From the NCBI GenBank assembly GCA_963666735.1, contig OY762926.1, positions 256,001 through 320,000 of the forward strand: a DNA stretch of 64,000 nt, given 5' to 3'. Below the pieces are notes generated by a model. The model saw nothing but the letters and a program-made list of their open reading frames with translations, made no database searches and was not told where the DNA came from. How positions within the stretch are numbered: the stretch's first letter is position 1; each line of letters begins with the position of its first letter. Of this stretch, positions 4,017 to 38,764 are shown piece by piece. This DNA is from Gemmatimonadota bacterium (GTDB lineage: Bacteria > Gemmatimonadota > Gemmatimonadetes > Palauibacterales > Palauibacteraceae). Both the position numbers and the translations under genes were made by a program.

Positions 4017-4027
4017 GATCTCATGCT

Positions 4028-16665: not shown

Positions 16666-16730
16666 TTCCTTGAGCCGCCCCCTCCCCGAGTCGCCGGATG
16701 AGATCGATGCTGATAGCGGTGCCGCCCATT

Positions 16731-16769
16731 CGCGTCAACAGGATTGTTGACAACAGGTCTGTTGACGCG
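16731..16769. repeat. Tandem 15-bp palindromic units CAAC-N6-GTTG (copy 1)
   Basis: CAACAGGATTGTTGA CAACAGGTCTGTTGA inside an 11-bp perfect inverted repeat CGCGTCAACAG..CTGTTGACGCG. Confidence 0.8.
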
Positions 16770-16774
16770 CGCAC

Positions 16775-17086: not shown

Positions 17087-17133
17087 CGTGTTCCCCTCCT
17101 GAAGCCGCGCGTTTGGTGCGAGTTCCCCTACAG

Positions 17134-17170
17134 GTTGCCAACAGGATCGTTGACAACGAATCCGTTGACG
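17134..17170. repeat. Tandem 15-bp palindromic units (copy 2)
   Basis: CAACAGGATCGTTGA CAACGAATCCGTTGA plus an in-phase GTTG at 17134. Confidence 0.78.
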
Positions 17171-17215
17171 ATACGCCTCCCGCCGTGGGGGGGCCTCGCC
17201 GCAAGCAGCTCACCG

Positions 17216-19621: not shown

Positions 19622-19637
19622 GAATCGAGCCTCCTCG

Positions 19638-20891
19638 CTAGTTCAACCGCCGGCCGAAAAGCACGAAGCCATGTGAATGGCGGGCCCGCCACCAGTCTTC
19701 CACCAGCCCGGAGACGAAGCGGTGGCCGTCTTCGTGTTGGGCCAGGTATCCGTCGTGTTCCAGCACATGAAGCACGTCTGCGACTTGGACCGTCACACGG
19801 TCGGGCAGGGAAGAGAGGTACGCGCCGCACTGCGCGATGGACTGCTCGCCGAGCACCCCGTCGCGCACCGCCGTCTCGGTCAGAAGATCGATCGCGATGC
19901 TGTAGCCCTCGTCGCCCAGGACCATGCGCAAACGACTCTCGTAGTGCTCGAGATGAATTTGCCCTCGCACCCCGAGCATTTCCTCCGAGTACACCCGGGA
20001 TACGTCATCCAGCGTCGCTTCGCGGCGTCCGGCCCGGCGCAGATACTCATGGCATTTGTCGAAGAACTGCTGGACATGCTGCGGGACGCAGCAGCGCAGC
20101 CGACGGCACATCTCCCGGCACACCTCCTCCGGGAGCCGGAGGCCGTAGGACGCGGCCAGTTCGCCCAGACACTCGATCGTCGTCTCCTCATCCCACGGTT
20201 TGAGGTCGAAAGGGGCGAAGATGTTGGCGTGAGCACTCAGCTCGGCCCGCTTGAGGATCGGTTCGAGACCCACGCTGCCCGACACGATCATCGGGATCCG
20301 TCTTCCGTGCGCCTGCCCGTTCTTTCGGAGCCAGCTCAGGAATTCATCCGCGTCTCTCCTGCGCTCGGGCGTCATTTCGAAATCGTGGCCCTGCAGCAGC
20401 CGGTTCACGAGGATCGGGAGTTCATCGATCGCAAGGACCACGGGTCTTCCGCTCTCGGACAGCGACGCGAACACCGCGTCACCCTTCGTACGCCAATTCC
20501 CCGCGTCGACTCGCGCACGCAACTTCACCCTGAGTTCGCTCATGCCGAGTTCGTCGATACGATCCACCGCGGCGCTCGAGGACTGCCCGATCCAATCCGT
20601 CATGCGGCCCCAGGTGCTCCGCACCCCTCTCGCCGCCGCGGCGATCTCCACGATGGCGTCCGCGGCCGTCACCGCATCCTCGAGATCGACGAACACCGTC
20701 GCGAAACTGCCTTGAGCCCGCAGGCGTCGCAGGGGTTCTCGGACCAGACTCGTCTTCCCCATCCGGCGCTGGGCGGTGACCAGCGTATGGACGCCGTCCC
20801 CGACGCGCTCCATGAGCGCCTCGATCTCGATCTCCCGGTTGAAGAAGCGGTCACCCTCGACCCAGTTTCCTCCCGCTTTCCTCAGACTCAT
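19638..20891 (-). CDS. STAND/archaeal-type AAA ATPase
   Basis: FFNREIE, AQRRMGKTS Walker A, VVLAIDELP Walker B, VSGSVG; ATG at 20891 after GGAG. Confidence 0.82.
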   Translation of the reverse strand: MSLRKAGGNWVEGDRFFNREIEIEALMERVGDGVHTLVTAQRRMGKTSLVREPLRRLRAQGSFATVFVDLEDAVTAADAIVEIAAAARGVRSTWGRMTDWIGQSSSAAVDRIDELGMSELRVKLRARVDAGNWRTKGDAVFASLSESGRPVVLAIDELPILVNRLLQGHDFEMTPERRRDADEFLSWLRKNGQAHGRRIPMIVSGSVGLEPILKRAELSAHANIFAPFDLKPWDEETTIECLGELAASYGLRLPEEVCREMCRRLRCCVPQHVQQFFDKCHEYLRRAGRREATLDDVSRVYSEEMLGVRGQIHLEHYESRLRMVLGDEGYSIAIDLLTETAVRDGVLGEQSIAQCGAYLSSLPDRVTVQVADVLHVLEHDGYLAQHEDGHRFVSGLVEDWWRARHSHGFVLFGRRLN

Positions 20892-20901
20892 ATCCATCTC
20901 C

Positions 20902-20946
20902 CAGCAACATTGTTGGAAACAAAATTGTTGGCAACAATACTGTTGG
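20902..20946. repeat. Three tandem 15-bp units ending TGTTGG (copy 3 of the motif)
   Basis: CAGCAACATTGTTGG AAACAAAATTGTTGG CAACAATACTGTTGG; TGTTG at 20911, 20926, 20941. Confidence 0.8.
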
Positions 20947-21053
20947 GAACTTGGGCATGGCAAGGGGGAGGACGGCATGTCGCCGGAAACCGCTGGCGGC
21001 TTCGCGCTCAGAAGGGCGCGACGCTTGACTCGAAGCCTCTACGCTGAGAAATT

Positions 21054-21079
21054 GTCGGCATTGGTTTATTTGTGCCGAC
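21054..21079. promoter_or_regulatory. Inverted repeat upstream of abiEi, probable AbiEi operator
   Basis: GTCGGCA-N12-TGCCGAC in an AT-rich gap; AbiEi proteins autoregulate through inverted repeats. Confidence 0.55.
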
Positions 21080-21103
21080 GTTTTTATAGACATTGGACGC
21101 CCG

Positions 21104-21712
21104 ATGGTTCAGGAATCCACGATAGACGACCGGCTCTCCGAGACGGGTCTCGGTACGTTCTTCCGTCCTTGCGACGCGGAAGCCGCCGGCATCGGCTACC
21201 ACGAGCTTCGTCGCCTGGAAGATGTCGGTCTGGTCGAGCGCGAAGGGTGGGGCCTCTACCGGCAGACTCGTGCCGACATCACGAGCCACCATATGATCGC
21301 GGCCGTGTGCGCACGCGCGCGGCACGCCGTCGTTTGCCTGCTCACGGCGCTGGAAGTGTACGACATCGGCACGCAGATGCCGCACCAGGTTTGGATCGCG
21401 ATCCCCCACAAATCGCGCGTCCCGGCCCTCGGGGAGCTGCCGGTTCGCATCACGCGCTTCAGCGCGGCGTCCCTCACGTACGGTGTTGTCGACACGGAAT
21501 TCGACGGCGTGCCCGCGAAGATCACCACGCCGGCCCGGACCGTAGTGGACTGCTTTCGGTTCCGAAGCAAGGTCGGACTCGAACCCGCGCTCGAGGCGCT
21601 GCACGAGGTGCTCGATGACGGGAAGGCGACGCCCGATCAGATCTGGCGGGCGGCGGACGTGTGCGGGGCCCGCTCACTGCTGGGGCCAGCCCTGAGAATG
21701 CGGACGTACTGA
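21104..21712 (+). CDS. abiEi: Type IV TA antitoxin AbiEi
   Basis: N-term wHTH (LVEREGWGLYR), VVCLLTAL, ITTPARTVVDCFRFRSKVGLE. Confidence 0.88.
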   Translation: MVQESTIDDRLSETGLGTFFRPCDAEAAGIGYHELRRLEDVGLVEREGWGLYRQTRADITSHHMIAAVCARARHAVVCLLTALEVYDIGTQMPHQVWIAIPHKSRVPALGELPVRITRFSAASLTYGVVDTEFDGVPAKITTPARTVVDCFRFRSKVGLEPALEALHEVLDDGKATPDQIWRAADVCGARSLLGPALRMRTY

Positions 21713-22677
21713 TGCGGCGTAGGCCGATCACGAACGTCCCCGCATCGGTCCACGCACGCCTCCTGAACGTGGCGCGCAACCAGGGGACGCAACTGAACTT
21801 TCTCCTCCAATCCTACGCGGCCGAGCGATTCCTCTACCGGATGGGCCGGTCGCCCGCGTCCGACCGCTTCACCCTGAAGGGTGCTACCCTGTTTCTCGTG
21901 TGGGGCGCCGACACGTTCCGGGGAACCCGGGATGTGGATCTTCTTCGCTCAGGATATCCCGACCACGAGGTGCTCCGACGTGACCTGGAGACGATCGGCG
22001 ACGTCCCATGCCCGGAAGATGGGGTCGTGTTTGAACGCGGAGAGGCGGGCACTCGGCTGCGCCCCCTTCCCCTTGAAAGAACGCAGGGCGCCGTCCGTGT
22101 ACGCATGAACGCGACGCTGGGCACGATCCGGCTGCCGTTGCAGGTCGACGTCGGATTCGGCGATCTTCCCATCCCGGAACGGGAGAGGTGTACGTGTCCC
22201 GTTCTGCTCGACCAGCCGGAACCGACGGTCTGGACCTATCGCCGGGAGACGCACATCGCCGAGAAGTTCCATGCGATGGTACGACTCGGCCGGGGGAACT
22301 CGCGCATGAAGGATCTGTGGGACATCGCAGCGCTGGCGGGTCGATTCTCGTTCGACGGGCCCGCGCTCCGGGACGCAATCTCGCATACGTTCGGGATCCG
22401 CGGCACGAGCCTGGACGAGGGGGTTCCCGCAGTCCTCGAGCCGTCCTTCTTCTCCGGCGAGGAGCTCGAGAGACTGTGGGCCGGGTTCCTCACGAACGCG
22501 CTCCTCTTCGGCGACGGTCCGGTGGTGCTACCGGATGTGGGCGACCGCATACGGAGCTTCCTGGAACCGGTCCACGCCAGCATCGTGCGGGGCGAGCCGT
22601 TTCGGCGTCGCTGGTCGCCGGGCGGCCCCTGGCGTCCGCTGACCGGGGAGGAAGGAAGCATCGACACGAATGAGTGA
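21712..22677 (+). CDS. abiEii: Type IV TA nucleotidyltransferase toxin AbiEii
   Basis: ERFLYR, FTLKGATL, RGTRDVDL, QVDVGFGD, IAEKFHAM, NSRMKDLWD. Confidence 0.92.
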   Translation: MRRRPITNVPASVHARLLNVARNQGTQLNFLLQSYAAERFLYRMGRSPASDRFTLKGATLFLVWGADTFRGTRDVDLLRSGYPDHEVLRRDLETIGDVPCPEDGVVFERGEAGTRLRPLPLERTQGAVRVRMNATLGTIRLPLQVDVGFGDLPIPERERCTCPVLLDQPEPTVWTYRRETHIAEKFHAMVRLGRGNSRMKDLWDIAALAGRFSFDGPALRDAISHTFGIRGTSLDEGVPAVLEPSFFSGEELERLWAGFLTNALLFGDGPVVLPDVGDRIRSFLEPVHASIVRGEPFRRRWSPGGPWRPLTGEEGSIDTNE

Positions 22678-24073
22678 GGACCGCGTGGCAACCCCACCGT
22701 CCGCGCGGCGATTCGGACGCTATCCCGAATACCGCGATTCCGGCGTCGAGTGGCTGGGGGAGATTCCGGCTCATTGGGACGTGACGCGATTGAAGCGGAT
22801 CTCCAAGATCGTGAACGGAGGGACGCCCAAGACGTCGGAGCGACGTTATTGGAACGGCCCCATCACCTGGATTACGCCGGACGACCTCGGGAGAACGACG
22901 GGGATCGTAATCCGAGAATCGAATCGATCCATCACATCGGCCGGACTGGAAAGCTGCGGTGCTCAGTTGGTTCCCGCGGGGTCGCTCGTGCTGTCCACAA
23001 GAGCGCCCATTGGCCACCTCGCTGTGGCCCGGACCGATCTCTGCACGAACCAGGGATGTCGAAGCCTCGTGTTCCGAGATCAGCGGTCATGTCGGTATGT
23101 CTTCTACCAACTCGCCACCGCTCGCGGAGTGCTCCAATCTCGGGGGGCGGGGAGCACGTTTCGCGAGCTTTCGAGCGTCAATCTGGAGACGTTGGCGATA
23201 TCGGCACCTCCGCTCTCCGAACAGCGTGCCATCGCCGACTTCCTGGACAAAGAAACCGCCAAGATCGACGCGCTGATTGCGAACAAGGAGGGGCTCGTCG
23301 ACCTGCTGCAGGAGAAACGCACCGCGCTAATCACCCGAGCTGTCACCCGGGGCCTGAATACGCAGGTCCCCACGAGAGAATCTGGCGTCGAGTGGCTGGG
23401 GGACGTACCCGAGCACTGGGACGTACAAGAGCTTAGGCACTTGATCGACGGGCGACTCGCGTACGGGGCCAACGCTCCGGCAGACTACACGGATCCTGCG
23501 TGGCCGCGGTATCTGCGAATCACGGATTTCTCACCGGATGGGACTCTCCGTCCGGATACGTTCCGGTCCTTGCCGCCCGATGTGGCGAGGACCTACCTCG
23601 TGGAACCCGGGGATGTGCTGTTGGCTCGAAGCGGCGCCACGGTGGGGAAGGCGTTTCTCGTAAGGGAGGGTTCTGGTAGGGCCTGTCATGCAGGCTATTT
23701 GATTCGAGCCCGTCCAGATTCGTCTCTCCTGCTACCCGACTTTCTGTTCGCCTTCGTGCGTAGTGCACCATTCGCAATGTGGAAGGAAATGACCTTGATC
23801 ATCGCGACGATCCAGAACATTGGTGCTGACAAGTACGCCAACCTTCCGGTGCCCACGCCTCCGCTCAAGGAGCAACGTGCTGTGGTTGCCTTCCTTGATC
23901 GGGAGACTTCACGGATTGACGCGTTGGCTGGCAAAGCAAAGGACGTCATCAAGAAGTTGGAAGAGTACCGGATGGCTCTCATTTCAGCCGCAGTTACCGG
24001 CAAGATTGATGTTCGCAATTACCGCGATGGCCGGACCGTCACTGACCCCAGTCGACCAAGGCTGATGTCGTGA
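22670..24073 (+). CDS. hsdS: Type I R-M specificity subunit S
   Basis: Duplicated SGVEWLG..P.HW and PPL.EQRA..FLD.ET..IDAL conserved regions flanking two TRDs; ISAAVTGKIDV. Confidence 0.95.
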   Translation: MSEDRVATPPSARRFGRYPEYRDSGVEWLGEIPAHWDVTRLKRISKIVNGGTPKTSERRYWNGPITWITPDDLGRTTGIVIRESNRSITSAGLESCGAQLVPAGSLVLSTRAPIGHLAVARTDLCTNQGCRSLVFRDQRSCRYVFYQLATARGVLQSRGAGSTFRELSSVNLETLAISAPPLSEQRAIADFLDKETAKIDALIANKEGLVDLLQEKRTALITRAVTRGLNTQVPTRESGVEWLGDVPEHWDVQELRHLIDGRLAYGANAPADYTDPAWPRYLRITDFSPDGTLRPDTFRSLPPDVARTYLVEPGDVLLARSGATVGKAFLVREGSGRACHAGYLIRARPDSSLLLPDFLFAFVRSAPFAMWKEMTLIIATIQNIGADKYANLPVPTPPLKEQRAVVAFLDRETSRIDALAGKAKDVIKKLEEYRMALISAAVTGKIDVRNYRDGRTVTDPSRPRLMS

Positions 24074-27000
24074 CCCCCGTGACCGTGTCCGAACGCGTCT
24101 TCGAGCAGGCGATCGAGTCCGCTCTACTGAGATCATATGCCGCTGGTGGCGGGCAGGTTCGCGAGCGGGCGGCACCGCCATACGGCAACGGCATCGCACC
24201 TGGCGGATACCATCAGCGCGAAGCCAAGCACCACTATGACCGAGACCTCTGCCTGCTTCCGCAGGATGTCATGGACTTCCTCCTCGCCACGCAGCCGCGG
24301 ACATGGAAGCGGCTGAAGCAGCACTACGGCGGGGAGGTTCGAGCACGGCTTCTCAAGCGCTTATCGAAGGAGCTTGAGCGGCGCGGCGCCCTCGATGTGT
24401 TCCGGAAGGGCATCAAGGACTCGGGGTGCAAGTTCCAGTTGGCGTACTTCCGGCCGGCGAGTGGGCTTAACGAAGAGACGCGCCGCCTCCACGCGGCGAA
24501 CATCTTCTCCGTGGTTCGCCAGCTCCGCTACAGCACGAAGACCGAGCAGAGCCTTGACCTGGTGCTGTTCCTCAACGGGATCCCGTTCTTCACAGCGGAA
24601 CTCAAGAATCCGCTCAACGGGGAGGACGTTCACGACGCGATCCGGCAGTACCGGAGAGACCGGGACCCGCGCGAACCGCTTCTCGCTCACGGACGCTGCC
24701 TCGCGCACTTCGCGGTGGACCCGGATTTGGTGTACGTCACCACACGCCTTGAGGGGCCCGCGACCCGCTTCCTCCCATTCAACCAGGGCCGGTTCGGTGG
24801 CGCCGGCAATCCGCCCGTGCCGCCGACCCGGAGCGGATACGCCACGGACTATCTCTGGAACGAGGTATGGGTCCGGGACAGCGTGCTCGATCTGATCCGC
24901 CAGTTCATCCACGAGGTGGAGGATGAGGACGGCGCCGGTCGGAAGACGAAACGCCTGATCTTCCCGCGCTACCAGCAGCTCGACACCGTACGCCGAATGG
25001 TGTCCCACGCCCGGAACCACGGGGCGGGGGAGCGCTACCTGATCCAGCACTCCGCCGGGAGCGGCAAGAGCTACACGATCGCCTGGCTCGCACATCAGCT
25101 CTCCACCCTCCATGATGCGGAAGATCGCTCGGTCTTCGACTCCATCGTCGTCGTCACGGACCGCCGCGTCCTCGATCGTCAGCTTCAGCGCGCCATCACC
25201 CAGTTCGAGCAGACGCTCGGGGTGGTTGAGAAGATCGACAAGGATTCAAAACAGCTCCGCGCGGCGCTGGAATCCGGCAAGCGGATCATCGTCACGACGC
25301 TCCAGAAATTCCCGGTGATTGCCGAGGAGATCGGATCGCTTCCCGGCAAGCGGTTCGCGGTGATCGTCGACGAAGCGCACTCCTCCCAGTCCGGCGAGAG
25401 CTCGAAGAGCCTCAAGGCCGTGCTCGCCGCGGGGAGCCTCGAGGCGGCCGAAGAGGAGGAGGCCGGCGTCGCGACCCCGGAGGAGGAACTGGAGGCGGCG
25501 GTCCTCGCCGAGATGGAGAAGCGCGGTCCCCTGCCGAACCTCTCCACATTCGCGTTCACCGCGACGCCCAAGGCGAAGACGCTGGAGCTGTTCGGCGTCA
25601 AGCGGGACGACGGACAGTTCGAGCCGTTCCACCTGTACAGCATGCGGCAGGCGATCGAGGAGGGCTTCATCCTCGACGTCCTCGCCAACTACACCACGTA
25701 CTCGGCCTACTGGCGGCTCTTCAAGACGATCGAGGACGACCCGCGCTACGAGAAGGGCAAGGCCGCCTACCTGCTCAAGTCCTTCGTGGAACTGCATCCG
25801 CACGCGATCGGGCGGAAGGTCGAGATCATGATCGACCACTTCGCCGAGCGGGTGCAGGACAGGATCGGCGGCAGGGCGAAGGCGATGATCGTCACCCGCT
25901 CGCGCCTCCACGCCGTGCGCTACAAGCTCGCCGTGGACGCCTATCTGGAGGAGAAGGGGTACCCTTGGAAGTGCCTGGTCGCCTTCTCCGGCAAGGTGAA
26001 CGACGAGGGCAAGGAATACACCGAACCCGGCATGAACTCGGCCGGGGGACCGCACCCGATCGGAGAGCAGCAAACGGCGGCGGAATTCGCCAAGCCCGAG
26101 TACCGGTTCCTGGTCGTGGCGAGCAAGTTCCAGACGGGCTTCGACCAGCCGCTCCTCCACACCATGTACGTGGACAAGAAGCTGGGCGGCGTCAACGCGG
26201 TGCAGACGCTGTCCCGCCTGAACCGGACCCATCCCGGCAAGGACGAGACGGCCGTCCTCGATTTCGCCAACGAGGCTGATCACATCCGCGAGTCGTTCGA
26301 GCCGTACTACGAGACGACGTTGCTCTCGGAGGCGACGGACCCAAACCTCCTCTACGATCTGCAGGAAGAGCTTCTCGGCTTCCACGTCTACACCGAGGCG
26401 GAGGTGGACGCCTTCGCCCGGGCCTACTTCGGCAAGGACGCCACGCAGGACCAGCTGTACGCCCTGCTCGCCGAACCTGTGCAGCGTTCCCGCGACTTGG
26501 AACCCGAGGTGCGTTCGGAGTTCCGCGGCGGGCTGCGAAAGTACACGCGCCTGTACTCGTTCCTGGCGCAGATCCTGACCTTCAAGGACGCGGACCTGGA
26601 GAAACTGCACGTCTTCTCCCGCTACCTCCGGCAACTCCTGCCGGCGGATGGAAGCGAACTTCCGCGCGAGGTGCAGCGGAACATCGACATGGAGTCGTAC
26701 CGGATCCAGCAGACCGGGCAGGGAGAAATCAAGCTGCCCCGCGGTTCTGGCACCATCGACCCCCGGAAGATCGGTATTCAGCCTGGTGGGTCGCAGGAGG
26801 AGATCGAAGCCCTGTCACGGATCATCGCGGAGCTGAACGACCGCTTCGGCCTCAACCTCGGTCCGGAACACCGCGTGACCCTCCGCCAGATGATGGACAA
26901 GCTCGAAGGGGACGCGGCGCTCGACGCGGCCACCCGCGTGAACACCCGCGAGAACGTGCGCCTCACGTTCGATCACAAGGTCGAAGAGGTGATCGAGGAC

Positions 27001-27603
27001 ATCGTCGACTCGAACTTCGACCTCTACAAGCGCATCACCGACGACCGCTCCTTCGGAGAACTCGTGAAGACCCTCCTCTTCGACCAGTACCTCCGCGGCC
27101 ACCGCAACGCCGAGGAACTGATCAAGCGCGGCGAATCGAAGACGCTGGAGTTCAAGTCGACCCTCCGCTGGAACCTCAAGGAGGACCGCAAGGACAACCG
27201 CGTGACCCACGCCGCCCTGAAGACGATCGGGGCCTTCCTGAACACCGAGGGCGGCGACCTCCTCCTCGGCGTCGCCGACGACGGCTCGGTCGTCGGCATC
27301 GAGCGTGACGGCTTCGACAACGACGACAGGTTCATGCTCCACCTGGGTCAGGTTGTGCGAAACGCCTTAGGCGACCGCGCCGGAACGTGTATCGATCCAA
27401 GGATCCAGATCTTGGACGGACGCACGGTGTGCGTCGTGAGCTGCCAGCGAAGCCCCGAACCCGTCTTCCTCCGCTGGAAGAACTTCGAGAGCACCGAGGA
27501 CGGCGACTTCTTCGTACGCAGCGGCCCCGGCACTGCCAAGCTACCGGCCCAGAGCGCGAGGGAGTACATTGAAACTCGCTTCCAGCCAGTGGCCACACGG
27601 TAG
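24070..27603 (+). CDS. hsdR: Type I R-M restriction subunit R with C-terminal AlbA_2/Schlafen-like domain
   Basis: DLVLFLNGIP..ELKN, HSAGSGKS, DEAHSSQ, FTATPK, QTGFDQP; C-term GESKTLEFKST..AFLNTEGGDLLLGVADDG. Confidence 0.95.
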   Translation: MTPVTVSERVFEQAIESALLRSYAAGGGQVRERAAPPYGNGIAPGGYHQREAKHHYDRDLCLLPQDVMDFLLATQPRTWKRLKQHYGGEVRARLLKRLSKELERRGALDVFRKGIKDSGCKFQLAYFRPASGLNEETRRLHAANIFSVVRQLRYSTKTEQSLDLVLFLNGIPFFTAELKNPLNGEDVHDAIRQYRRDRDPREPLLAHGRCLAHFAVDPDLVYVTTRLEGPATRFLPFNQGRFGGAGNPPVPPTRSGYATDYLWNEVWVRDSVLDLIRQFIHEVEDEDGAGRKTKRLIFPRYQQLDTVRRMVSHARNHGAGERYLIQHSAGSGKSYTIAWLAHQLSTLHDAEDRSVFDSIVVVTDRRVLDRQLQRAITQFEQTLGVVEKIDKDSKQLRAALESGKRIIVTTLQKFPVIAEEIGSLPGKRFAVIVDEAHSSQSGESSKSLKAVLAAGSLEAAEEEEAGVATPEEELEAAVLAEMEKRGPLPNLSTFAFTATPKAKTLELFGVKRDDGQFEPFHLYSMRQAIEEGFILDVLANYTTYSAYWRLFKTIEDDPRYEKGKAAYLLKSFVELHPHAIGRKVEIMIDHFAERVQDRIGGRAKAMIVTRSRLHAVRYKLAVDAYLEEKGYPWKCLVAFSGKVNDEGKEYTEPGMNSAGGPHPIGEQQTAAEFAKPEYRFLVVASKFQTGFDQPLLHTMYVDKKLGGVNAVQTLSRLNRTHPGKDETAVLDFANEADHIRESFEPYYETTLLSEATDPNLLYDLQEELLGFHVYTEAEVDAFARAYFGKDATQDQLYALLAEPVQRSRDLEPEVRSEFRGGLRKYTRLYSFLAQILTFKDADLEKLHVFSRYLRQLLPADGSELPREVQRNIDMESYRIQQTGQGEIKLPRGSGTIDPRKIGIQPGGSQEEIEALSRIIAELNDRFGLNLGPEHRVTLRQMMDKLEGDAALDAATRVNTRENVRLTFDHKVEEVIEDIVDSNFDLYKRITDDRSFGELVKTLLFDQYLRGHRNAEELIKRGESKTLEFKSTLRWNLKEDRKDNRVTHAALKTIGAFLNTEGGDLLLGVADDGSVVGIERDGFDNDDRFMLHLGQVVRNALGDRAGTCIDPRIQILDGRTVCVVSCQRSPEPVFLRWKNFESTEDGDFFVRSGPGTAKLPAQSAREYIETRFQPVATR

Positions 27604-27637: not shown

Positions 27638-28234
27638 ATGTTACCAGATTATCCACACATCAAGAAGGAAGTCCAGGATATCCTGCTGCGGTACCTCAAA
27701 GAAAGGGTATTCGCGCACGCACCGATCCTGAGGGGGATCGGTCGAACAGCGCAGCACGAAGGTGACAAACATCCGTTCAGAGATGTCGATGGGAACGAGG
27801 ATCAGATTGAATACCAAGAGTTTGCCACATGTGAATCGATCACGCGCCAAGAGATGCGCCATGGAACTTTCCAAGTAGTCCTATCAACGTACGATGAGAT
27901 GGCGGAAGCCTTCGCTGAAGCTCAATCTAAGATGCTGTTCGCAACCGTCTCCGAGGCCGCGGAATCGGTCGGCAACGTCATCCACGCAAACGGAGCGCTA
28001 ACCAAGGAGAAGTTCCTCGAACTATTGAACACTGTGCAGCGGGACTTCCATCCACGTACGGGTGAGCCGCAACCTCTCAGCCTGGTTCTTCACCCGGAGA
28101 CGCTGGCACGGATCGAGCACGACCTGGAGAGCTGGGAAGAGGACCAACATTTTGTGGCTGAGCTATCAGCCATTGAGCAGAGACAAAGGCTAGACTGGCG
28201 TGATCGAGAATCTCGTAGACGTTTGGTTGACTGA
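27638..28234 (+). CDS. Hypothetical protein, possibly a truncated HK97/encapsulin-like fold
   Basis: Clean 198-aa ORF overlapping the next gene; the fold guess rests on sequence pattern only. Confidence 0.7.
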   Translation: MLPDYPHIKKEVQDILLRYLKERVFAHAPILRGIGRTAQHEGDKHPFRDVDGNEDQIEYQEFATCESITRQEMRHGTFQVVLSTYDEMAEAFAEAQSKMLFATVSEAAESVGNVIHANGALTKEKFLELLNTVQRDFHPRTGEPQPLSLVLHPETLARIEHDLESWEEDQHFVAELSAIEQRQRLDWRDRESRRRLVD

Positions 28235-29807
28235 GGCATCGGAGCGCTCGTACGAAGCGGCCTTCGGCCAGCTTCTCGTTATCGAGGGTCAGCGTGTCAT
28301 CCAGGGTCCGATGCACCACGCGCACGAACACGGTAAGGACATCATTGCTTGGGACGGAGATCAGCTGTGCGTCTATCAACTGAAGGGAGGTGCCGGTAGA
28401 CTGAATACCACGGTGGTGGAGAACGTCCAGCAGCAGCTGTTTGCAGCTACGGCTGCCGCAGTGACGCATCCAAGTCTTCCGGGCCCTCGCCGCCCAGATC
28501 GAGTCTATCTGGTGACAAATCGCACCGCCACCGGCCCGGCCCAGGACCGGATCCGCGTCTTGTCGGAGGGCAATCGGATCAACGGATTGGGAACTTTGCA
28601 TTTGATCGAATTCGCCGAACTCAAATCCCGATTTGTAACTGTGGAAAGACAATTTTTTCCCAGTTCCCCAAAGGCATTGGATACTTTCCTGTCGCTGTTC
28701 TTGGCCGATGGGCGAGGGCCCTTGCTGCGGCAAGACTTCTTTCGATTGCTCGAAGAAATCCTTCCCGTGCGGGGGCCGAGAGCTAAGGCTCGTGACGCAG
28801 GGCGCGCTATTTCGGCCGCGGCGCTCACGACGGCGTTTGCGTTACGCAAATGGAGTGATTTGGACAATCACGCAGAGACTGCGATGGGCTGGGTCTGCTT
28901 CGCCACGCAGGTCCTCCGGCTAGCGGAAAGGAATCGACTAGGCCGGGCGCGCTGGTACAGGTCGTATCGACTGGCGTTGGAGGAGGCCCGTCGTCACGCA
29001 AGGCATCTCTTGGAGGAAGCAAGCGCGGCCGAGGACCTCATTATACCTGACCCTGCGGAATCGATCGTTCGCGGAGCACGAGCGGTCAAGGTGTGCGGGT
29101 TGCTATCCGCCTTCACGATTTCAGCTCGTATCGAATTCGGCGTTCACCATACGCACCGCGGACAGGCTGGTAGATTGATACTCCGAGAGCGAGACTGCTT
29201 CGAGATAGCAGGAGAAGTGCAGGCCCCCGATTACTTCCTGTCGATCTTGGCGGTTAGTGAGGCCGGCGAGTTCAACGTCGCGACAGAGATGCTCCTGCTT
29301 TGGGTGGCCAGCGTTTCAGGGGCGAATCAGCCTGATTCTGCCTCGCCGGTACCGGATCCTTACCATTCGGTCGAAGACATCATGCTCGACAGGTTGCGCC
29401 CACAGGGAGCGGTCCTTCCCGATGAAGATTGGGCTGGAAGCGCCTATACGGTCCATATTGGAGTGCGCTGGGCCGTGCGACGCTTGTGGCGCCAAACCTT
29501 GAGGACGGTCTGGGCAAACGTGACCCGGATCAGTCATCAGCATTTCAGACCGAGATGGCGCGCTGACTATTATGCACCGGAGAGTGATCGAGGCGAGTTG
29601 GCGAGTTGGTTCTATCCCACGCCGACGAGCTGGTCCGACCTTCGCGCTCTCGCCGAGGAGTGCGATTCGTCGACTCTTCCTGACACTTTGGTGAAGTGCC
29701 CGGAATTCGTACCGTTCTACTGTCTCGCCTTGCCACACCGGTTCAACGTCCAGGTCTCAGATTTGCTGGACCGACTTGCTTCGACGGGAATCGCAGATGC
29801 GAACTGA
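28200..29807 (+). CDS. Mrr-like PD-(D/E)xK nuclease domain fused to a long helical region
   Basis: E..F..LL...G, EHGKDIIAW..CVYQLK (D-x12-QxK), YLVTN. Confidence 0.72.
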   Translation: MIENLVDVWLTEASERSYEAAFGQLLVIEGQRVIQGPMHHAHEHGKDIIAWDGDQLCVYQLKGGAGRLNTTVVENVQQQLFAATAAAVTHPSLPGPRRPDRVYLVTNRTATGPAQDRIRVLSEGNRINGLGTLHLIEFAELKSRFVTVERQFFPSSPKALDTFLSLFLADGRGPLLRQDFFRLLEEILPVRGPRAKARDAGRAISAAALTTAFALRKWSDLDNHAETAMGWVCFATQVLRLAERNRLGRARWYRSYRLALEEARRHARHLLEEASAAEDLIIPDPAESIVRGARAVKVCGLLSAFTISARIEFGVHHTHRGQAGRLILRERDCFEIAGEVQAPDYFLSILAVSEAGEFNVATEMLLLWVASVSGANQPDSASPVPDPYHSVEDIMLDRLRPQGAVLPDEDWAGSAYTVHIGVRWAVRRLWRQTLRTVWANVTRISHQHFRPRWRADYYAPESDRGELASWFYPTPTSWSDLRALAEECDSSTLPDTLVKCPEFVPFYCLALPHRFNVQVSDLLDRLASTGIADAN

Positions 29808-29847: not shown

Positions 29848-31182
29848 CTAATCGAACAAAAACGTCCCCGTCGAATCCCGGAACGGAATGTGGTGCCAGT
29901 CAACGCCGAAAGCGGGGTAAACACGCTTCAGAAGACTGAAAGCCACATCGTCGGGACTAAAGGTTGCCGGAACGGGCGTGGGTCCGAGGAGTAGGTGTGG
30001 GCCTATGAATGGTGCGCTGGAGCGGAGCGGAGACAGGAAGCGAATCTCGTCAGGTTGGCCCGGCCGCAGAATGTAGCCAGCAGCGTTCCGGTATTGGAGT
30101 TGGATCAGCACCTCATCGGCGTAGCCTACGTGGTGGAGAAGTGCCGCAACTAGGCGCAGAAAGGAGACGGGGTATTCGACGACGGGATACGGATAGAGTC
30201 TCGGTCGGAGTCGTCGCTCCTCCTCGGATTGCCGCCAGCAAAAATGGTAATTGAGAGGTGTCCAGAACTCCACGTGGCCGTTCTCGAACACGTCGAGGTA
30301 CGCGTCGTCCTTGAGCCCTAAAGCCAATCCGGTGAGAGACCGTTGGTGGCTGTGATCTAAACCGCCCATGTTCCAGCCACCATGCCGAGACGCAGGTGGG
30401 GCGGAGAGGATCGAGGCGATCTCCGGCTCGTCGAATACTACGAGACCTTGACGCGGCTTGGTCGGGGTAGCGGCGAGCCACAAGTATGAGCTTTCGCCAA
30501 CCTCCGTTTCGAATCGTTCACGCATAACGTCAGCCAGTACATGTCCGTCATCGCTACGGAGTAGGGCGTCGGAAACGTACGCCTGCGAAGCCTCCCCAAG
30601 CTCTTTCTTGCTCTTGTCGTGCGTCAGGATCCGGACGAGGTGAGAGAGACTGGCGTCGATACGAGCCAGACGCCTTCCGGTCGGGCTGCTCAGGAAGGTT
30701 TCGCGGATCTCTCCCACCGACATTGGGCGCTTGCCATCCTCGACGCGGGTCCAAAAGCCAGTGTGGCCGTCCAAGGTTACCATGTGCGGACGGCGTCCAC
30801 TGACGGGGATGCGGGCTAGGATCACGGTGGAACCCTTCACGTCGCGCTTACCGATCTCGATCCCTTCAATGTGCTCAGAGATATGCACGTGGCATAGGTC
30901 ACGGATGCTCTTGAGCATTGAGTCCGAATTGCTCATGAGGGCAGGCTCGGAGAAGCACTGAGCTCGACCGTGACCGTCATCGCGAACGCCGAAAATGAGA
31001 TACCCGCCGCCACCGTTTGCCATCGACACGACATCCCGTAACAGCTCAAGCCGCGCGTCGTCGTTTTTGTAGTCAAAGGTTGCCTTGAATTCGAGGTACT
31101 GCCGTTCCGACACGTGAGCTTCGACGAGACCTGCGATCTCATCGTCTGGGATTTCATCAAGTGGACGCTGGTCGAAGATCAT
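29848..31182 (-). CDS. AlbA_2/Schlafen-like domain protein with uncharacterised C-terminal domain
   Basis: SERQYLEFK, LRDVVSMANGGGGYLIFGVRD, RPHMV; ATGA overlap with the MBL gene. Confidence 0.87.
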   Translation of the reverse strand: MIFDQRPLDEIPDDEIAGLVEAHVSERQYLEFKATFDYKNDDARLELLRDVVSMANGGGGYLIFGVRDDGHGRAQCFSEPALMSNSDSMLKSIRDLCHVHISEHIEGIEIGKRDVKGSTVILARIPVSGRRPHMVTLDGHTGFWTRVEDGKRPMSVGEIRETFLSSPTGRRLARIDASLSHLVRILTHDKSKKELGEASQAYVSDALLRSDDGHVLADVMRERFETEVGESSYLWLAATPTKPRQGLVVFDEPEIASILSAPPASRHGGWNMGGLDHSHQRSLTGLALGLKDDAYLDVFENGHVEFWTPLNYHFCWRQSEEERRLRPRLYPYPVVEYPVSFLRLVAALLHHVGYADEVLIQLQYRNAAGYILRPGQPDEIRFLSPLRSSAPFIGPHLLLGPTPVPATFSPDDVAFSLLKRVYPAFGVDWHHIPFRDSTGTFLFD

Positions 31183-32249
31183 GCTGCCAGATCGCCGAGG
31201 GGGCACGCTGGGTCGAAGAGCTTCACGGTCCAAGGGCTACCGGTAGCCAGGGATCGGCGTAGTTGAACGATTCCAGGCGATCCGATCACACCCGTGAGCC
31301 TCGTGCCGGTGCTTCGCACGGTCTTGGATACCGTCCCGGGTCGCTTCGGAGCGGACGCGCCGGGCTTCGCGGAGGCGTAGGCTCGAGGCGTACGTGAGAG
31401 AATGCGCTCGACATCTTCAGCTGTCGGAAGGAGCCGGCCTCCTCTCCGCCACGGAGTGAGCACGGCGAAGGGCTCGGGGTCCAGCATTTGTTCCCACACC
31501 TCCGGCGCATCGGCATTGCCGGAACCGTGGTGCGGCACCTTGAACACGGAGGCCCTTCCCGTCGGCTTCGCGGGGTCACTAAGTACGGCCATCCAGCCCG
31601 TCCTTTCGAGGTCGCCCCCGAGTAGTACGATCGCATCTCCGCATCTCACCCACAGCGCGACGGACAACTGATTAGGTGACGGCGAGCGATTTCGTTTCGC
31701 GGTCTTGCCTTCGGGAGTGACCCACTCTTCGACGGATCGAACAAACGCCGCGAACAGGTCGTCGCCGGGGGACAGCGACCAGACTTCACTCGATGCGTTG
31801 CGAAACACTCGTCGGACGGGCGCGGCCCAGATGGGTGAAGCACCTCTGCTGCTCAGACATGAGAAGGCGGAGTGAATCTCGCGTACTCCGTAGCCTACCT
31901 CGGAGAAGTCCCTTCCCGCGAGACCTCCTGCCGTACTCAAAAACTCCCTGGAGCCCAGAGCGCCCGCGCAGCAGAACCGGGCGGAAGCGCACGCGTCGAC
32001 CAACCGGGACATGCCGCGGATGTGGTCGTCGTGCCAGTGTGTTGCCACGATCAGCTTCACGGCGTCGGCCGGATTCACGCCGAGCCCGTCCAGGTATTGG
32101 AGCGCCACGGGCCTTCCGTCCGCGCCGCAGCAACTGTCGACGATGATCCAGTCGCCATCGCTGAGATGGACGAGAATGCTCTCTCCGTAGCCCGGACCGA
32201 TCAGCGCGACCTCGACCTCGTCCGGGCGCCGAGGAGCCGGTTCACTCAA
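31179..32249 (-). CDS. MBL-fold metallo-hydrolase (ComEC/Rec2-like, probable nuclease)
   Basis: GPGYGESI, VATHWHDDHIRG, NQLS, LLGGDL, KVPHHGS; TTG start overlapping the upstream stop. Confidence 0.88.
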   Translation of the reverse strand: MSEPAPRRPDEVEVALIGPGYGESILVHLSDGDWIIVDSCCGADGRPVALQYLDGLGVNPADAVKLIVATHWHDDHIRGMSRLVDACASARFCCAGALGSREFLSTAGGLAGRDFSEVGYGVREIHSAFSCLSSRGASPIWAAPVRRVFRNASSEVWSLSPGDDLFAAFVRSVEEWVTPEGKTAKRNRSPSPNQLSVALWVRCGDAIVLLGGDLERTGWMAVLSDPAKPTGRASVFKVPHHGSGNADAPEVWEQMLDPEPFAVLTPWRRGGRLLPTAEDVERILSRTPRAYASAKPGASAPKRPGTVSKTVRSTGTRLTGVIGSPGIVQLRRSLATGSPWTVKLFDPACPLGDLAA

Positions 32250-32847
32250 GGCCCCACTGCGCGCGCAGCCTGTCCGCCCACTCGCGGCCGCGCTCAAGAT
32301 CTCTGTCGGTTACCGGCGGCAGGTCGAGAAAGACGATCTGCGACACGCGTCGTCGCGTGCCTCCCACGGATCTCTCGTAGCCGATCACCCAACGGAAGAT
32401 CGATCCGGACTCCATATTCTGCCGGTCCTCCGCCGAGACCTCATCCAGAGGGATGACCGCATCCTCACACGCAACGGAGTCTCCGGCCGTCAGGTCCAAC
32501 AGACGCGCTCCAAACTCGTCGGTCCCGATGTCGGTGACGTATCCTTCCCACTCCTGGAGGGCGTGAAGGGACGCGGTCGGAACCGGCGCGACGTACGGCG
32601 GCAGGATGTTGACCCCGCCATTTCGCGGAGCACCGTTCCCTTGGCCGCCGGCATGGGTCGGATTAACAGGGGCGTTGGCGGCAAGCCCGGACTGGTCGGT
32701 CGTAGACGAACCATCGGTTGTGGGCGCCCAAATGGACCGAAGGCCCTGCTTATGCACAGATCCCCCGGGGATGGCGCGCGATACGTCCGCGTCGGAGGTG
32801 GGAGATCGTTCAAGCGGCTTCGCCGTCAATTCAAGACTCAAGGCCAC
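32242..32847 (-). CDS. Hypothetical protein (low-complexity N-terminus, beta-rich OB/S1-like C-terminus)
   Basis: GGAGG SD then GTG; C-term LQEWEGYVTDI..FGARLLDL..GSIFRWVIGY. Confidence 0.72.
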   Translation of the reverse strand: MALSLELTAKPLERSPTSDADVSRAIPGGSVHKQGLRSIWAPTTDGSSTTDQSGLAANAPVNPTHAGGQGNGAPRNGGVNILPPYVAPVPTASLHALQEWEGYVTDIGTDEFGARLLDLTAGDSVACEDAVIPLDEVSAEDRQNMESGSIFRWVIGYERSVGGTRRRVSQIVFLDLPPVTDRDLERGREWADRLRAQWGLE

Positions 32848-33392
32848 TCGATCAGCCTCCCGTCTGAGCTAGGGACATGATGTGGTCGATGATGCCTTCG
32901 CTACGCTCCCTGGACGGCCTGAACTCGCCCGCAAGGATCTCCATCAGGCGCGCCGCCGAATCGGCCCCTTCCTGATCCGTTACGAAATGATCGTTTACGC
33001 CCACGTAAACGCCAGTACCTCCTTCTGTTCCCACTCGAACAGACGGTTCGACGGTGACGTTGATTTGTCCCCCGCGGTGCCTTCCGTCCGGTCTGAGTTG
33101 TGCCATTCGAACGGCGGTCATGCCGCCGAACTTCCCGTCCAAATCAAGCTCCTCCCGCCACGGACCCCAAGGTTCCACCGGCGCCAACGTCGTGCCGATC
33201 ATATCCCTAGCGGCCGCATCGCGCACCAAGAAATGCACGTTTCGGTTGATTCCGCAGGCCTTCAAAGGCGTGTGGTTTAGACACTCAGAGAACACTCGGA
33301 CGACAAGATCACGCAGGCGTTCGTAGGGTGCCTGCTGGAGTTGCCCCGCTTTGACGGACACCTATCCATTGGGGTCAGCAAGGAGGTGTTCC

Positions 33393-33707
33393 ATGGCGGG
33401 CCGGAAGGGGCGGTATCCATCCGAGTACAGGGAGCGGCTGGTGGAACTGGTGAGGGGCGGGCGTAGTGCCGCGTCACTCGCCCGGAAGTTCGAGCCGTCG
33501 GAGCAGACGATCCGGAACTGGGTCCGGCAGGCGGATGTGGACGAGGGGTTCCGTAGCGACGGGCTGACAACGGAGGCGCGCAGCGAGCTGCGGCGCCTGG
33601 AGCGGGAGAACAAGCGGCTCAGGATGGAGCGCGACATCCTAAAAAAAGCCGCGGCCTGGTTCGCGAGGGAGAGCGGATCGATCCCCGGCGGGGGTATGCG
33701 TTCATGA
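33393..33707 (+). CDS. IS3 transposase OrfA
   Basis: HTH YPSEYRERLV..TIRNWVRQA, coiled coil ERDILKKAAAWFA; AGGAGG SD. Confidence 0.93.
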   Translation: MAGRKGRYPSEYRERLVELVRGGRSAASLARKFEPSEQTIRNWVRQADVDEGFRSDGLTTEARSELRRLERENKRLRMERDILKKAAAWFARESGSIPGGGMRS

Positions 33708-34552
33708 GGGCGCACCGGGCCGAGTTCCCGCTTCGGGCCATGTGCCGGGTGCTGGGTCTCTCCCCCAGCGGCTACTACGACTGGTTGAGGCGTCCTCCCT
33801 CGGACCGCGCGCGTCGGGACGCGGAACTGGAGGCCCGGATCGCGAAGATATGGACCGGCAGCGGCGAGACGTACGGCCGTCCGCGGATCCACGCGGCGCT
33901 CGGGGCCGAGGGCGAGCGGGTGGGGCAGAAGCGCGTGGGGCGGCTGATGAGGGGGCTGGAGATCGAGGGCGCGACCAGGCGGCGCTTCAAGACGGCGACG
34001 ACGAAGAGGGATGCCGAGGCCCGCCCCGCGCCGGACCTGGTGGACCGTGACTTCTCGGCCTCGGGGCCCGACGAGCTGTGGGTGGCCGACATCACCTACG
34101 TCCCCACGTGGGCTGGCTGGCTGTATCTGGCCGTCGTGCTCGACGTCTGGAGCCGCCGCGTCGTCGGCTGGGCCATGGCGACGCACATGCGGACCGAGCT
34201 CGTCGAGGCCGCGCTGGCGATGGCTCTCGCAAGGCGTCGTCCCGAGGGTCGTGTCGTGCATCATTCCGACAGGGGCTCGCAGTACACCTCGCTCGCCTTC
34301 GGGGAGCGCTGCCGCGAGTCGGGCATCGCCCAGTCCATGGGCTCGGCGGGCGACGCGTACGACAACGCCATGTGCGAGAGCTTCTTCGCGACGCTGGAGT
34401 GCGAGCTGATCTGGAAGCGCTCGTTCCGCACGGCGGACGAGGCGCGACGGGAGGTCTTCGGCTTCATCGAGGGCTTCTACAACACCCGGCGGCTGCACTC
34501 GGCACTCGGCTACGAGTCGCCGGCCGACTACGAGAGCAACCATGCGGCCTGA
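33704..34552 (+). CDS. IS3 transposase OrfB (DDE, rve)
   Basis: YGRPRI, WVADITY, HHSDRGSQY, DNAMCESFF, YNTRRLHSALGY. Confidence 0.95.
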   Translation: MRAHRAEFPLRAMCRVLGLSPSGYYDWLRRPPSDRARRDAELEARIAKIWTGSGETYGRPRIHAALGAEGERVGQKRVGRLMRGLEIEGATRRRFKTATTKRDAEARPAPDLVDRDFSASGPDELWVADITYVPTWAGWLYLAVVLDVWSRRVVGWAMATHMRTELVEAALAMALARRRPEGRVVHHSDRGSQYTSLAFGERCRESGIAQSMGSAGDAYDNAMCESFFATLECELIWKRSFRTADEARREVFGFIEGFYNTRRLHSALGYESPADYESNHAA

Positions 34553-34942: not shown

Positions 34943-37308
34943 CTACTCGGCGATGCCCTTTTCGTTCAAGACCTCCCACACCCGGTCGGGGGTGATCGGG
35001 ATGTCGAGGTGCGTCACGCCGAGGTGCGCCAGCGCGTCCACCACCGCGTTGGCGATCGCCGGGGGCGCGCCCACCGTGGCCGACTCGCCGACGCCCTTGG
35101 CGCCGAGCGGGTGGTGCGGGGACGGGGTGATCGTGTGGCCGGTCTCCCACGCGGGGGTCTCCATGGAGGTTGGGACGAGGTAGTCCATGAACGAGCCGGC
35201 GAGGTTGTTGCCGTCCTCGTCGTAGGTCATCTCTTCGAACAGGGCGGGGCCGATGCCCTGCGTGAGGCCGCCGTGGATCTGGCCCTGCACGATCATGGGG
35301 TTGATGATGTTGCCGCAGTCGTCGACCGCCACGAAGCGGCGAACGGTCACCTCGCCCGTGCCGCGGTCGATGTCGACCACGCAGATGTACGTCCCGAACG
35401 GGAAGGTGAGGTTGGGCGGGTCGTAGTAGTTCGTCGCCTCCATCCCCGGCTCCATCCCCTCGGGCAGGTTCGTGTAGGCGGCGAAGGCGCAGTCCTGGAT
35501 CGTCACGGACCGGTCGGGGGCGCCCTTCACGGAGAACTTCCCGGGCTCCCACTCGAGATCTTCCTCCGCCACCTCCATCAGGTGGGCGGCGATCTTCGCG
35601 GCCTTGGCGCGGATCTGGCGGGCGGCCATCGCTCCCGCGGCCCCGGCGGTCGGGGTCGATCGGCTGGCGTAGGTGCCCAGTCCGTACGGCGCGGTGTCGG
35701 TGTCGCCCTCCTCGACCTGCACGTGGGCGGCGGGGAGTCCGAGTTCCTCGGCGATGATCTGCGCGTAGGTGGTCTCGTGGCCCTGGCCCTGCGACTTGGT
35801 GCCGAAGCGGGCGATCGCCTTCCCGGTGGGGTGAACGCGCACCTCGGCCGAGTCGAACATCTTGATGCCGAGGATGTCGAAGTCTTTCGACGGTCCCGCG
35901 CCCAGCACCTCGGTGAAGCTGCACACGCCGATCCCCATCAACTCGCCGCGCTCGCGCTTCTCGGCCTGCTCCCGGCGCAGGTCGTCGTAGCCGATCATCT
36001 CCTTCGCCTTGTCCATCGCGGCCTGGTAGTCGCCGCTGTCGTACTCCCAGCCCAGCGGGGACTGGTAGGGGAAGGCCTCCTTCGGGATGAAGTTCTCCTC
36101 GCGCAGTTGCGCCGGATCCTTCCCGATCTTGTGCGCCAGCGTGTCCACGACGCGCTCCATGCAGTGCACGGCCTCGGTCACGCGGAAGGAGCAGCGGTAG
36201 GCGACGCCGCCCGGCGGCTTGTTCGTGTACACCGCGTCCACTTCGGCGTACGCCTGCTCCATGTCGTAGGAGCCGGTGCAGATCGAGAACAGCCCGGCGG
36301 GGAACTTGGAGGGCGCGGCCTGGGCGTCCGTGTAGCCGTGGTCCGCGAGCGTCTTGATGCGCAGGCCCCGGATCTTCCCGTCGGCGTCGGCCGCGAGTTC
36401 GGCGTCCATGTGGTAGTCGCGCGCGAACGAGTCGGCCTGGAGGTTCTCCATCCGGTCCTCGATCCACTTGACGGGCTTGCCGAGCACGACGGAGGCCGCG
36501 ATCGCGATCACATAGCCGGGATAGACCGGCACCTTGCCGCCGAAGCCGCCCCCGATGTCGGGCGACACGACGCGGATCTTTTCCTCGGAGAGCCCGACGT
36601 GTCCCGCCACGAGCGCGAGCACGGTGCGGATGGCGTGCGGGGCCTGGGTCGTCATGTAGACGGTGAGGTGGCCCTCGACGGGGTTGAAGTCGGCCACGCA
36701 GCCGCACGTCTCGATCGAGGCCACGTGGATGCGCGGCACATGCATGCTCTCGCGCACGACGACGTCCGCCTCCTCGAACACCTTGTCGGTGGCGGCCTTG
36801 TCGCCGGCCTCCCAGTGCCAGATGCGGTTGTCGGTCTGGCCCTCCTTGTCGGTGCGGAGGACGGGCGCGTCATCCTCGAGCGCCTTGAAGGGGTCGATGA
36901 CGGGTTTCATCGGCTCGTAGTCGACCTCGACCGCGGCGACGCCGTCGGCCGCCGCGTAGCGCGAGGTGGCGATGACCGCCGCGACCTCCTGCGCCTGGTA
37001 CATGACGGTGTCCGTGGGGAGCACCATCTGCGTGTCCGACATCAGCGTCGGCATCCAGTGCAGGTTGTACGCCTCGAGGTCCTTGCCGGTGAGGACGGCG
37101 AGCACGCCGGGCACCTCCAGCGCCTTGCTCGAGTCGATGCCGTTGATCTTCCCGTACGCGATCGGGCTGCGGACGATGTCGAGCCACAGCATGTCCGGGA
37201 GGACGATGTCGTCGATGTAGTTGCCCTTGCCCTGCAGGAAGCGCGGATCCTCCTTGCGCTTCATGGAGTGCCCCATGCCGCAGATGTCGGCGGAAGTCTT
37301 CGGTGCCA

Positions 37309-37309
<1 letters not shown>
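34943..37309 (-). CDS. coxL: Aerobic CO dehydrogenase large subunit, form I
   Basis: Active-site AYRCSFR (form I AYxCSFR), GGGFGGK, QGQGHETT, GAKGVGE. Confidence 0.95.
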
Positions 37310-37827
<518 letters not shown>

Positions 37828-37831
37828 CGCT

Positions 37832-38764
37832 CTATCCTCCCGCTCGCGCGAGCGCTTGACGTATGGCTCTCGCCGTCAGCACGCGGGCCATGTTCCGCTT
37901 GTATTGGACCGATCCGCGCCGGTCCTCGATGGGCTCGGTGACGTCGGCGGCGGCCTGGGCGGCGGCCGCGATGACATCGTCCGCGCCGGGCGCCTTCGTG
38001 ATCGCGTCGCGGACCCGGCCGATGGCGCCCCGGAGCCCGCCCGGCGGCGCGAGGGTCGCGCCGGTGAGCGTCTCCTCGGCGGCGGTCGCCCGAAGGGGGG
38101 CGAAGCCGAGGTTCGTGAGCCCGACGCCGGCCTTCGTCACCTTCCCGTCGTCGTCCAGCGTGAGCTGTACCGCGACCCCCGCCACCGCGTAGTCGCCCAC
38201 CTTGCGCTCCAGCTTGACGTAGGCGCCGCCGCTCCCGGCGGGCGGCACGGGGATGTGGAGTTCGGTGAGGATCTCGTCTTCCCCCAGGGCCGTCATGAAC
38301 AGGCCGTGGAAGAAGTCGTCGATGCCGATCGTGCGCTCTCCGCCCGGCCCGGTGGCAACGACGTGCGCGCGCAGCGCGAGCATCGTCGCCGGATGGTCGT
38401 TCGCGGGGTCGCCGTGGGCGATGTTGCCGCACACCGTGGCGCGGTTGCGCACGAGCGGGTCCGCGATCACGCGGGCGGTGTCGAGCAGGATCGGATAGCG
38501 CTCCGCCACCGCCCGGGATTCCTCGAGTTGCGTCTCGGTCACGAGCGCCCCGATGCGCAGGCAGCCGTCCCGTTCCTCGATCGCGCCGAGTCCGGGGATG
38601 CCGCCGATGTCGATGATGTTCGCGGGAGAGGCGAGACGAAGCTTCATCATCGGGAGGAGGCTCTGGCCGCCCGACATCACCTTCGCGTCGTCCAGTTCAC
38701 CGAGGAGGCCGAGCGCCTCGTCCAGTCCGCCCGGCGCATGGTAGTCGAACTGCGGGGGAATCAT
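37832..38764 (-). CDS. coxM: CO dehydrogenase medium (FAD) subunit
   Basis: [39 protein letters not shown]. Confidence 0.93.

Follow-up and report, generated by a model that had tools for sequence, protein, structure and literature searches.

An HK97-like protein paired with a putative Mrr-type nuclease in a Gemmatimonadota defence island

The HK97 fold of phage major capsid proteins is also used by cells, in the domesticated encapsulins. Encapsulins of Families 1–3 form shells and have metabolic cargo as partners. Family 4 encapsulins are truncated as well, keeping only the A-domain, and form dimers instead of shells (PMC11664910, available sections). Here a pair of overlapping genes from a Gemmatimonadota bacterium is described, encoding a protein (A) that retains the opposite, N-terminal part of this fold and a second protein (B) with an Mrr-type nuclease domain. 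The pair is located at positions 27638 to 29807 of a 64,000-nucleotide stretch of contig OY762926.1 (GenBank assembly GCA_963666735.1, positions 256,001 to 320,000 of the forward strand), to be referred to as the window. A and B constitute a real, widespread and apparently undescribed two-gene module, in which a truncated, capsid-derived protein is predicted to bind an Mrr-type nuclease.

Among the systems closest to this module, Olokun (OloA-OloB) is likewise a two-gene system, whose PD-(D/E)xK nuclease is about as long as B (556-position profile) and forms a complex with its partner. OloA is adaptin-like, and a 2:2 complex with adjacent nuclease domains has been predicted (bioRxiv 10.1101/2025.07.10.664194, available part). 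By analogy, A-B would work like two-gene nuclease systems such as Olokun. OloB matches weakly 5 of 44 B homologues (best E 2.9e-7), mainly over the nuclease domain (residues ~5–150), and does not match the B protein of the window. Membership in Olokun was rejected, with no full-length OloB match, an HK97-like partner, and no OloA match in 150 A homologues. The OloB and phrog_544 models had no matches in the genome samples nor in the controls, and hence allowed no direct comparison. The first gene of Dazbog carries DUF262 (PF03235; bioRxiv 10.1101/2022.08.27.505566, available part). Dazbog was also rejected, as DUF262 is absent from A and from the 25 families listed for its 150 homologues, and no PADLOC Dazbog match was found.

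The satellite SaPIbov5 encodes a coat homologue, Ccm, a full shell subunit that, unlike A, has no nuclease partner. This homologue co-assembles with the coat protein of the helper phage and redirects assembly (PMC10945586, available part). Avs7, Avs8, Avs10, CapRel and Lit sense capsids by TPR or other helical sensors or by short motifs, and act through STAND ATPases or other effectors (PMC13581612, available part). In comparison, A-B has no nucleoside triphosphatase, and its candidate sensor is itself capsid-derived. A-B perhaps resembles these capsid-sensing systems, or the SaPIbov5 homologue, in its action.

No defence system matching both genes was found with PADLOC 2.0.0 or NCBIfam 20.0, where only scattered weak matches appear (PDC-M53A in 2 of 150 sequences, JetB in 5 of 42, and OloB), and neither protein is above the cut-off in Pfam, PADLOC or NCBIfam. 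A full-text literature search likewise gave no description of the pair, which may be listed in candidate tables of supplements or in subscription papers. Capsids are unmentioned in the available main text of two discovery papers (PMC13069673; bioRxiv 10.1101/2025.01.08.631966). The pair had been called uncharacterised in the original prediction, a model's note on the DNA letters of the window, and none of these sources contradicts it.

The overlapping gene pair

24070..27603, plus strand: hsdR, with HSDR_N, ResIII and SWI2_SNF2 domains
27638..28234, plus strand: gene A, ATG start, 198 residues
28200..29807, plus strand: gene B, GTG start, 535 residues
28200..28234, plus strand: dual-coded overlap of 35 nucleotides; one frame gives the A tail RExxRRLVD-stop, the other the B start MIExxVxxWLT, including the invariant W9 and L10

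Gene A starts 34 nucleotides after the hsdR stop codon. The two open reading frames (ORFs) and their 35-nucleotide overlap are present where the original prediction placed them, and every peptide that it quoted is located in protein A. The pair had also been described as more AT-rich than the flanking core genes. Its guanine-plus-cytosine (GC) content is 53% for gene A and 59% for gene B, compared to 65% for hsdR and 66% for the whole window, and the values at third codon positions (GC3) are 0.59 and 0.64, compared to 0.87 in hsdR. The low GC content continues past the pair to ~31 kb, a further 1.5 kb, and is therefore not specific to A and B.

Gene B begins 35 nucleotides inside gene A in all 12 distinct genome loci, which are the source locus and 11 others (loci are numbered with an L; L011 and L012 were removed as duplicates of L008 and L007). 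A DNA pattern of the overlap matched 13 of 14 genome loci and at least 119 metagenome stretches. Among the metagenome matches listed, 118 encode A and 117 of those encode B, a count biased towards pairing by a pattern that spans the B start; in the one stretch without B, the contig end cuts this gene. Unbiased cases are L013, L014, L143 and L146, found with the A profile alone, and L144, found with a B search alone, where the gene upstream of B is matched by the A profile (E 3e-18). All five, including the distant pairs L143 and L144, carry both genes with an overlap of 32–35 nucleotides. The genes therefore co-occur widely outside the window, a point on which the original prediction had staked itself. 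L144 (positions 3430-5518, NZ_CP096567.1) is on plasmid pdjl-6-4 of the cultured organism Rhodococcus qingshengii, where WP_054801557.1 (annotated as hypothetical) overlaps WP_064075238.1 (annotated as 'restriction endonuclease') by 35 nucleotides.

The overlap probably couples the translation of A and B. Such tight overlap is typical of coupled toxin-antitoxin pairs, and this would suit a reading of the pair as an anti-phage or addiction-type nuclease module in which the capsid fold is a borrowed scaffold, A is a chaperone, an antitoxin, or an oligomerisation and DNA-binding subunit of B, and the trigger is unrelated to capsids. Such a trigger could be DNA that is foreign or modified, or the disappearance of A once host expression is shut off. 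This reading is somewhat doubtful, and the evidence bearing on it is given with each protein below.

Both genes are under purifying selection. The ratio of non-synonymous to synonymous substitution rates (dN/dS) is 0.15–0.30 for A and 0.13–0.18 for B, from five homologous loci (10 pairs for each gene, with the overlap excluded and dS near saturation). The tail of A is constrained too: of 150 sequences, 147 have R190, 147 have E191 and all 150 have R194. These sequences are the best profile scorers, a choice favouring conservation. Gly is found in none of them at positions 190 and 194, although the frame of B would allow GGA at both, and the A tail is therefore selected in its own frame. Gene B is interrupted, by a frameshift or by being cut short, in 12 of 58 loci with the stop in view (L003, L004, L013 and nine metagenome loci). 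In several of these an interrupted B stands beside an intact A, which could reflect loss of a toxic gene or errors in assembly.

Structural features of the two proteins

The structure model of A has a predicted local distance difference test score (pLDDT) of 94.3. Its elements are listed here under names assigned from the alignments and the HK97 topology:

Protein A, residues 1–33: N-terminal MLPD[FY]PxxK motif and N-helix
Protein A, residues 44–58: short E-loop hairpin
Protein A, residues 78–111: spine helix
Protein A, residues 123–153: first A-domain helix and VLHP strand
Protein A, residues 153–196: helical hairpin, closing with the basic WxxRExxRxL motif

The N-helix, E-loop, P-domain spine helix and A-domain thus follow each other in HK97 order, which places A in the HK97 superfamily. 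VIA structure matches of A are encapsulins and phage capsids. The encapsulins rank best, by a Z gap of less than 1, and are aligned from their residues 1–10 through the N-helix, E-loop and spine helix. In sequence, A matches the capsid hidden Markov model (HMM) NF042927 at E 2.1e-6 (26.9 bits, cut-off 80), and the A family matches phrog_544 at E 0.003. Alignment with hhalign to a six-sequence capsid profile is colinear with small phage capsid proteins, evidence that is weak by itself, and no match was obtained against a single capsid sequence. An HK97-like fold, with a spine helix and the A-domain 'vmnp' element (VLHP here), had been suggested from letter patterns; the structure matches and both HMMs agree with the fold, and the colinear alignment with the assignment of its elements.

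Other searches were less informative. Foldseek gave no match to A at E 0.001 in PDB or BFVD (the best BFVD row is a T7M gp10B fragment at E 0.023), a PDB sequence profile search returned nothing useful, and no encapsulin Pfam match was found for A or among the homologues scanned. A FliH Pfam match of A (E 0.011) was dismissed as a mere helix match. Capsid similarity is faint in most members of the family, which fits the borrowed-scaffold reading. Against it, A keeps the capsid elements in order and has a near-constant length (195–200 residues in 138 of the 150 sequences), and some members still match capsid HMMs.

There are differences between A and HK97 major capsid proteins (NF042927, PF25209, phrog_544; T7 gp10, PDB 3j7v), in which the N-helix, E-loop, spine helix and first A-domain elements are colinear with those of A. 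A has 198 residues compared to ~280–345, and ends 65–70 residues before the end of every shell protein matched. It also has an extra basic helical tail and a nuclease as its partner, and its gene is not part of a phage head module. With an incomplete fold and an HMM score below the cut-off, A falls short of a phage major capsid protein. A is probably unable to close a shell alone, as the end of the fold is gone. No fused or longer form of A was found among 7,999 candidates of 441–2,000 residues, which is weak evidence, and the range of 348–440 residues was outside the search. In the account tentatively favoured below, A would be a phage major capsid protein that has been domesticated and has lost its C-terminal part.

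The rank of the encapsulins raises another possibility, that A is a minimal encapsulin forming a shell or ring, with B as a cargo that stays inside until the structure is opened by stress or infection. The position of B at the cargo-binding face in the model (see below) is consistent with this. The C-terminal part of the shell proteins is missing from A, however, the truncated Family 4 encapsulins make dimers and not shells (PMC11664910, available sections), the Z gap to the capsids is small, and the sequence matches are to phage capsid families. This reading is very unlikely. Compared to encapsulins of Families 1–3, A is likewise cellular and has its partner, in the model, at the N-helix face; the partner is a nuclease and not metabolic cargo.

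Protein B has two parts:

Protein B, residues 1–153: Mrr-type PD-(D/E)xK nuclease domain (E15, E43, G45, D47, Q60, K62)
Protein B, residues 154–535: mostly alpha-helical body, contacting A in the model

B has the restriction-endonuclease fold with the conserved E, D and QxK of PD-(D/E)xK Mrr-like enzymes. An Mrr-like domain had been proposed from the pattern E..GKD-x12-QLK, followed by about 400 helical residues. Structure and profile matches support the PD-(D/E)xK fold, and the helical region corresponds to residues 154–535. The pattern itself is present as E43-x-G-K-D47-x12-Q60-L-K62, with one residue, and not two, between E and G. B shares its fold and D...QxK motif with Mrr/MspJI nucleases, to which it adds the large uncharacterised helical body. 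B itself has no Mrr_cat Pfam match, and Mrr_cat is found in 12% of one related Atlas cluster. We infer that B is a DNA-cutting nuclease, with the metal-dependent cleavage that would be expected of this class. Its nuclease domain resembles those of the modification-dependent enzymes MspJI and AspBHI, and weakly that of OloB, whose partner is adaptin-like; these likenesses favour a borrowed scaffold. B showed neither an SRA domain nor any other domain known to read DNA.

The GTG start of B is backed by homologues beginning at the same residue and by the invariant W9, L10 and E15. The Atlas record and several database copies (497–498 residues) begin at M38, leaving out positions 28200-28310 of the window and with them the first helix, which is encoded in the overlap and carries the invariant E15. 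A start at residue 38 would remove W9, L10 and E15, and gene callers probably miss the true start in those records.

The modelled complex and its possible action

Co-folding of the two proteins, which had been proposed as a check, produced a confident interface. The ESMFold2 score of A-B is 0.79 (0.78–0.83 in three runs), compared to 0.19 for the best control; 116 out of 157 solved complexes score at or above the mark used, as do 2 out of 215 mismatched pairs, numbers that apply only roughly to the alignments used here. The runs share at least 97% of contacts, with a partner pLDDT of at least 79. No similar solved complex is present among the PDB sequence or structure matches of A and B. The model supports direct binding of B by A.

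The interface is formed by residues 1–16 and 68–85 of A (N-helix and start of the spine helix) and residues 170–174, 221–226, 273–298, 332–333 and 392–400 of B. Its conserved members are the MLPD[FY]PxxK motif of A and G171, N223, E273 and R294 of B. The MLPD motif is not conserved in L143 and L144, the most distant pairs. The catalytic residues of B and the tail of A are all absent from the confident contacts. The invariant basic C-terminal helix of A, without counterpart in capsids and outside the modelled interface, could bind DNA, as a borrowed scaffold might. One option in the original prediction was that A holds the nuclease inactive. In the model A binds the helical body and leaves the active site uncovered, and a simple antitoxin that blocks this site is therefore not supported, which also counts against the borrowed-scaffold reading.

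The surface of A that B occupies in the model, at the N-helix and where the spine helix begins, corresponds to the one that scaffolding proteins bind in procapsids. The cargo-peptide site of Family 1 encapsulins, on the shell interior, is made up of the N-helix and P-domain (PMC11664910, available sections), and B would thus be turned inwards if A became part of a shell. Since B covers this very surface of A, the complex could be an integrated decoy, as the original prediction had it: A would mimic the inner face of a capsid, and a phage scaffold, delta domain or prohead protease would bind or cut the N-helix and free B. With the active site of B already uncovered in the model, release alone leaves activation unexplained, and this mechanism is unlikely.

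The account tentatively favoured is a two-gene anti-phage system in which A would engage phage capsid protein or proheads and either cluster the nuclease domains of B or carry B into the head. In the uninfected cell, the complex would be dormant, with the helical body of B clamped on the N-helix and on the beginning of the spine helix, leaving the E-loop, spine helix and first A-domain elements of A free. Upon infection, A would join phage capsid protein or a growing procapsid. Several B molecules might then be gathered, bringing their nuclease domains together in pairs that cleave DNA and giving abortive infection. Alternatively, B might be carried to the inner face of the head and cut DNA during packaging. 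Oligomerisation activates such nucleases in Avs and CBASS effectors. The more general proposal, of a widespread immune system whose truncated HK97 protein co-assembles with the incoming capsid and clusters a tethered nuclease or delivers it as Trojan cargo, is held more cautiously. A head-related trigger of either kind, by co-assembly or decoy, is somewhat probable, and the module most likely serves in anti-phage defence. Computation shows the two folds, the constant pairing, the cellular setting, the selection on both genes and a confident interface, while the functional part of the account is inference.

Distribution, neighbours and significance

The A family comprises 2,201 clusters at 50% identity. 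With the source genome included, 5 of the 401 host-phylum genomes carry A, and two further phyla each have 2 carriers among 301 genomes; within the host genus, A is present in 1 of the 19 other genomes. Named carriers are Gemmatimonadota, Dehalococcoidia and Kiritimatiellae metagenome-assembled genomes and Rhodococcus, to which the Atlas clusters add Pseudomonadota and Acidobacteriota. No match was found in three IMG/VR scans (one with too narrow a pattern) or three INPHARED searches, and a plasmid search gave none for A and one for a distant B. The location of the family is cellular, not viral.

No third gene recurs beside the pair, the largest neighbour cluster having 3 members (268 ORFs, 86 loci). 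A Pfam scan of 135 of these ORFs, from 63 loci, found no portal, terminase, head protease, capsid or tail family. The neighbours in 12 of the 63 loci include restriction-modification, toxin-antitoxin, TIR or Schlafen genes, and the number of such loci is 19 when OLD-like, McrB-like, SNF2, PLD, FRG and MZB genes are included, by a hand tally without a control. Integrases or transposases are near 7 of the 63 loci, and integrases near 4. These integrases, together with the capsid HMM matches, could suggest that A is what remains of a prophage capsid gene and has a nuclease gene beside it by chance. The 2,201 clusters of near-constant length and the absence of head and tail families and of viral matches speak against this, and the fixed overlap with B across phyla and the purifying selection largely refute it; it is hardly credible.

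The pair is located in a defence island, with the order NucS-like, HsdM-like, two P-loop ATPases, AbiEi/AbiEii, hsdS, hsdR and A-B. It directly follows hsdR in three further loci (L007, L074 and L078). The type I restriction-modification genes of the window are split across 13654-24073, the HsdM-like gene (13654-15819) being ~7 kb from hsdS/hsdR. Between them are:

17216-19621 and 19638-20978, minus strand: two P-loop ATPases
21104-22677: AbiEi/AbiEii pair

HsdR (24070-27603, plus strand) has a C-terminal Schlafen/AlbA_2 domain (residues 1022–1157, E 8e-18), as does its counterpart at L007:2429-5968. To the left of hsdM (9564-13593) are the NucS-like gene and a RecQ-like helicase with a weak PRTase-like C-terminus (DpdF-like). 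Beyond the pair, four minus-strand genes (29848-33361) encode unknowns of 169 and 201 residues, an MBL-fold protein with weak matches to LmuA, RT-associated MBL and PDC-M48B, and an AlbA_2 protein, possibly another defence operon. Judged by eye, the right end of the island is marked by an IS3-type transposase (33351-34552) and a CO-dehydrogenase-like molybdoenzyme operon (34943-38764).

The A family is a second case in which cells use the HK97 fold on a large scale, truncated in the opposite sense to Family 4 encapsulins and fixed to a nuclease. With two genes, clear catalytic and interface residues, and a distant pair in a cultured soil bacterium, the module lends itself to direct tests. The plainer reading still leaves a widespread candidate defence system that lacks annotation, and a clear exaptation of a capsid fold. 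If A senses or joins head assembly, detection would be hard to escape without breaking capsid assembly; and if co-assembly is true, the module would sense capsid assembly by like recognising like, with the HK97 fold put to use by cells outside the encapsulins.
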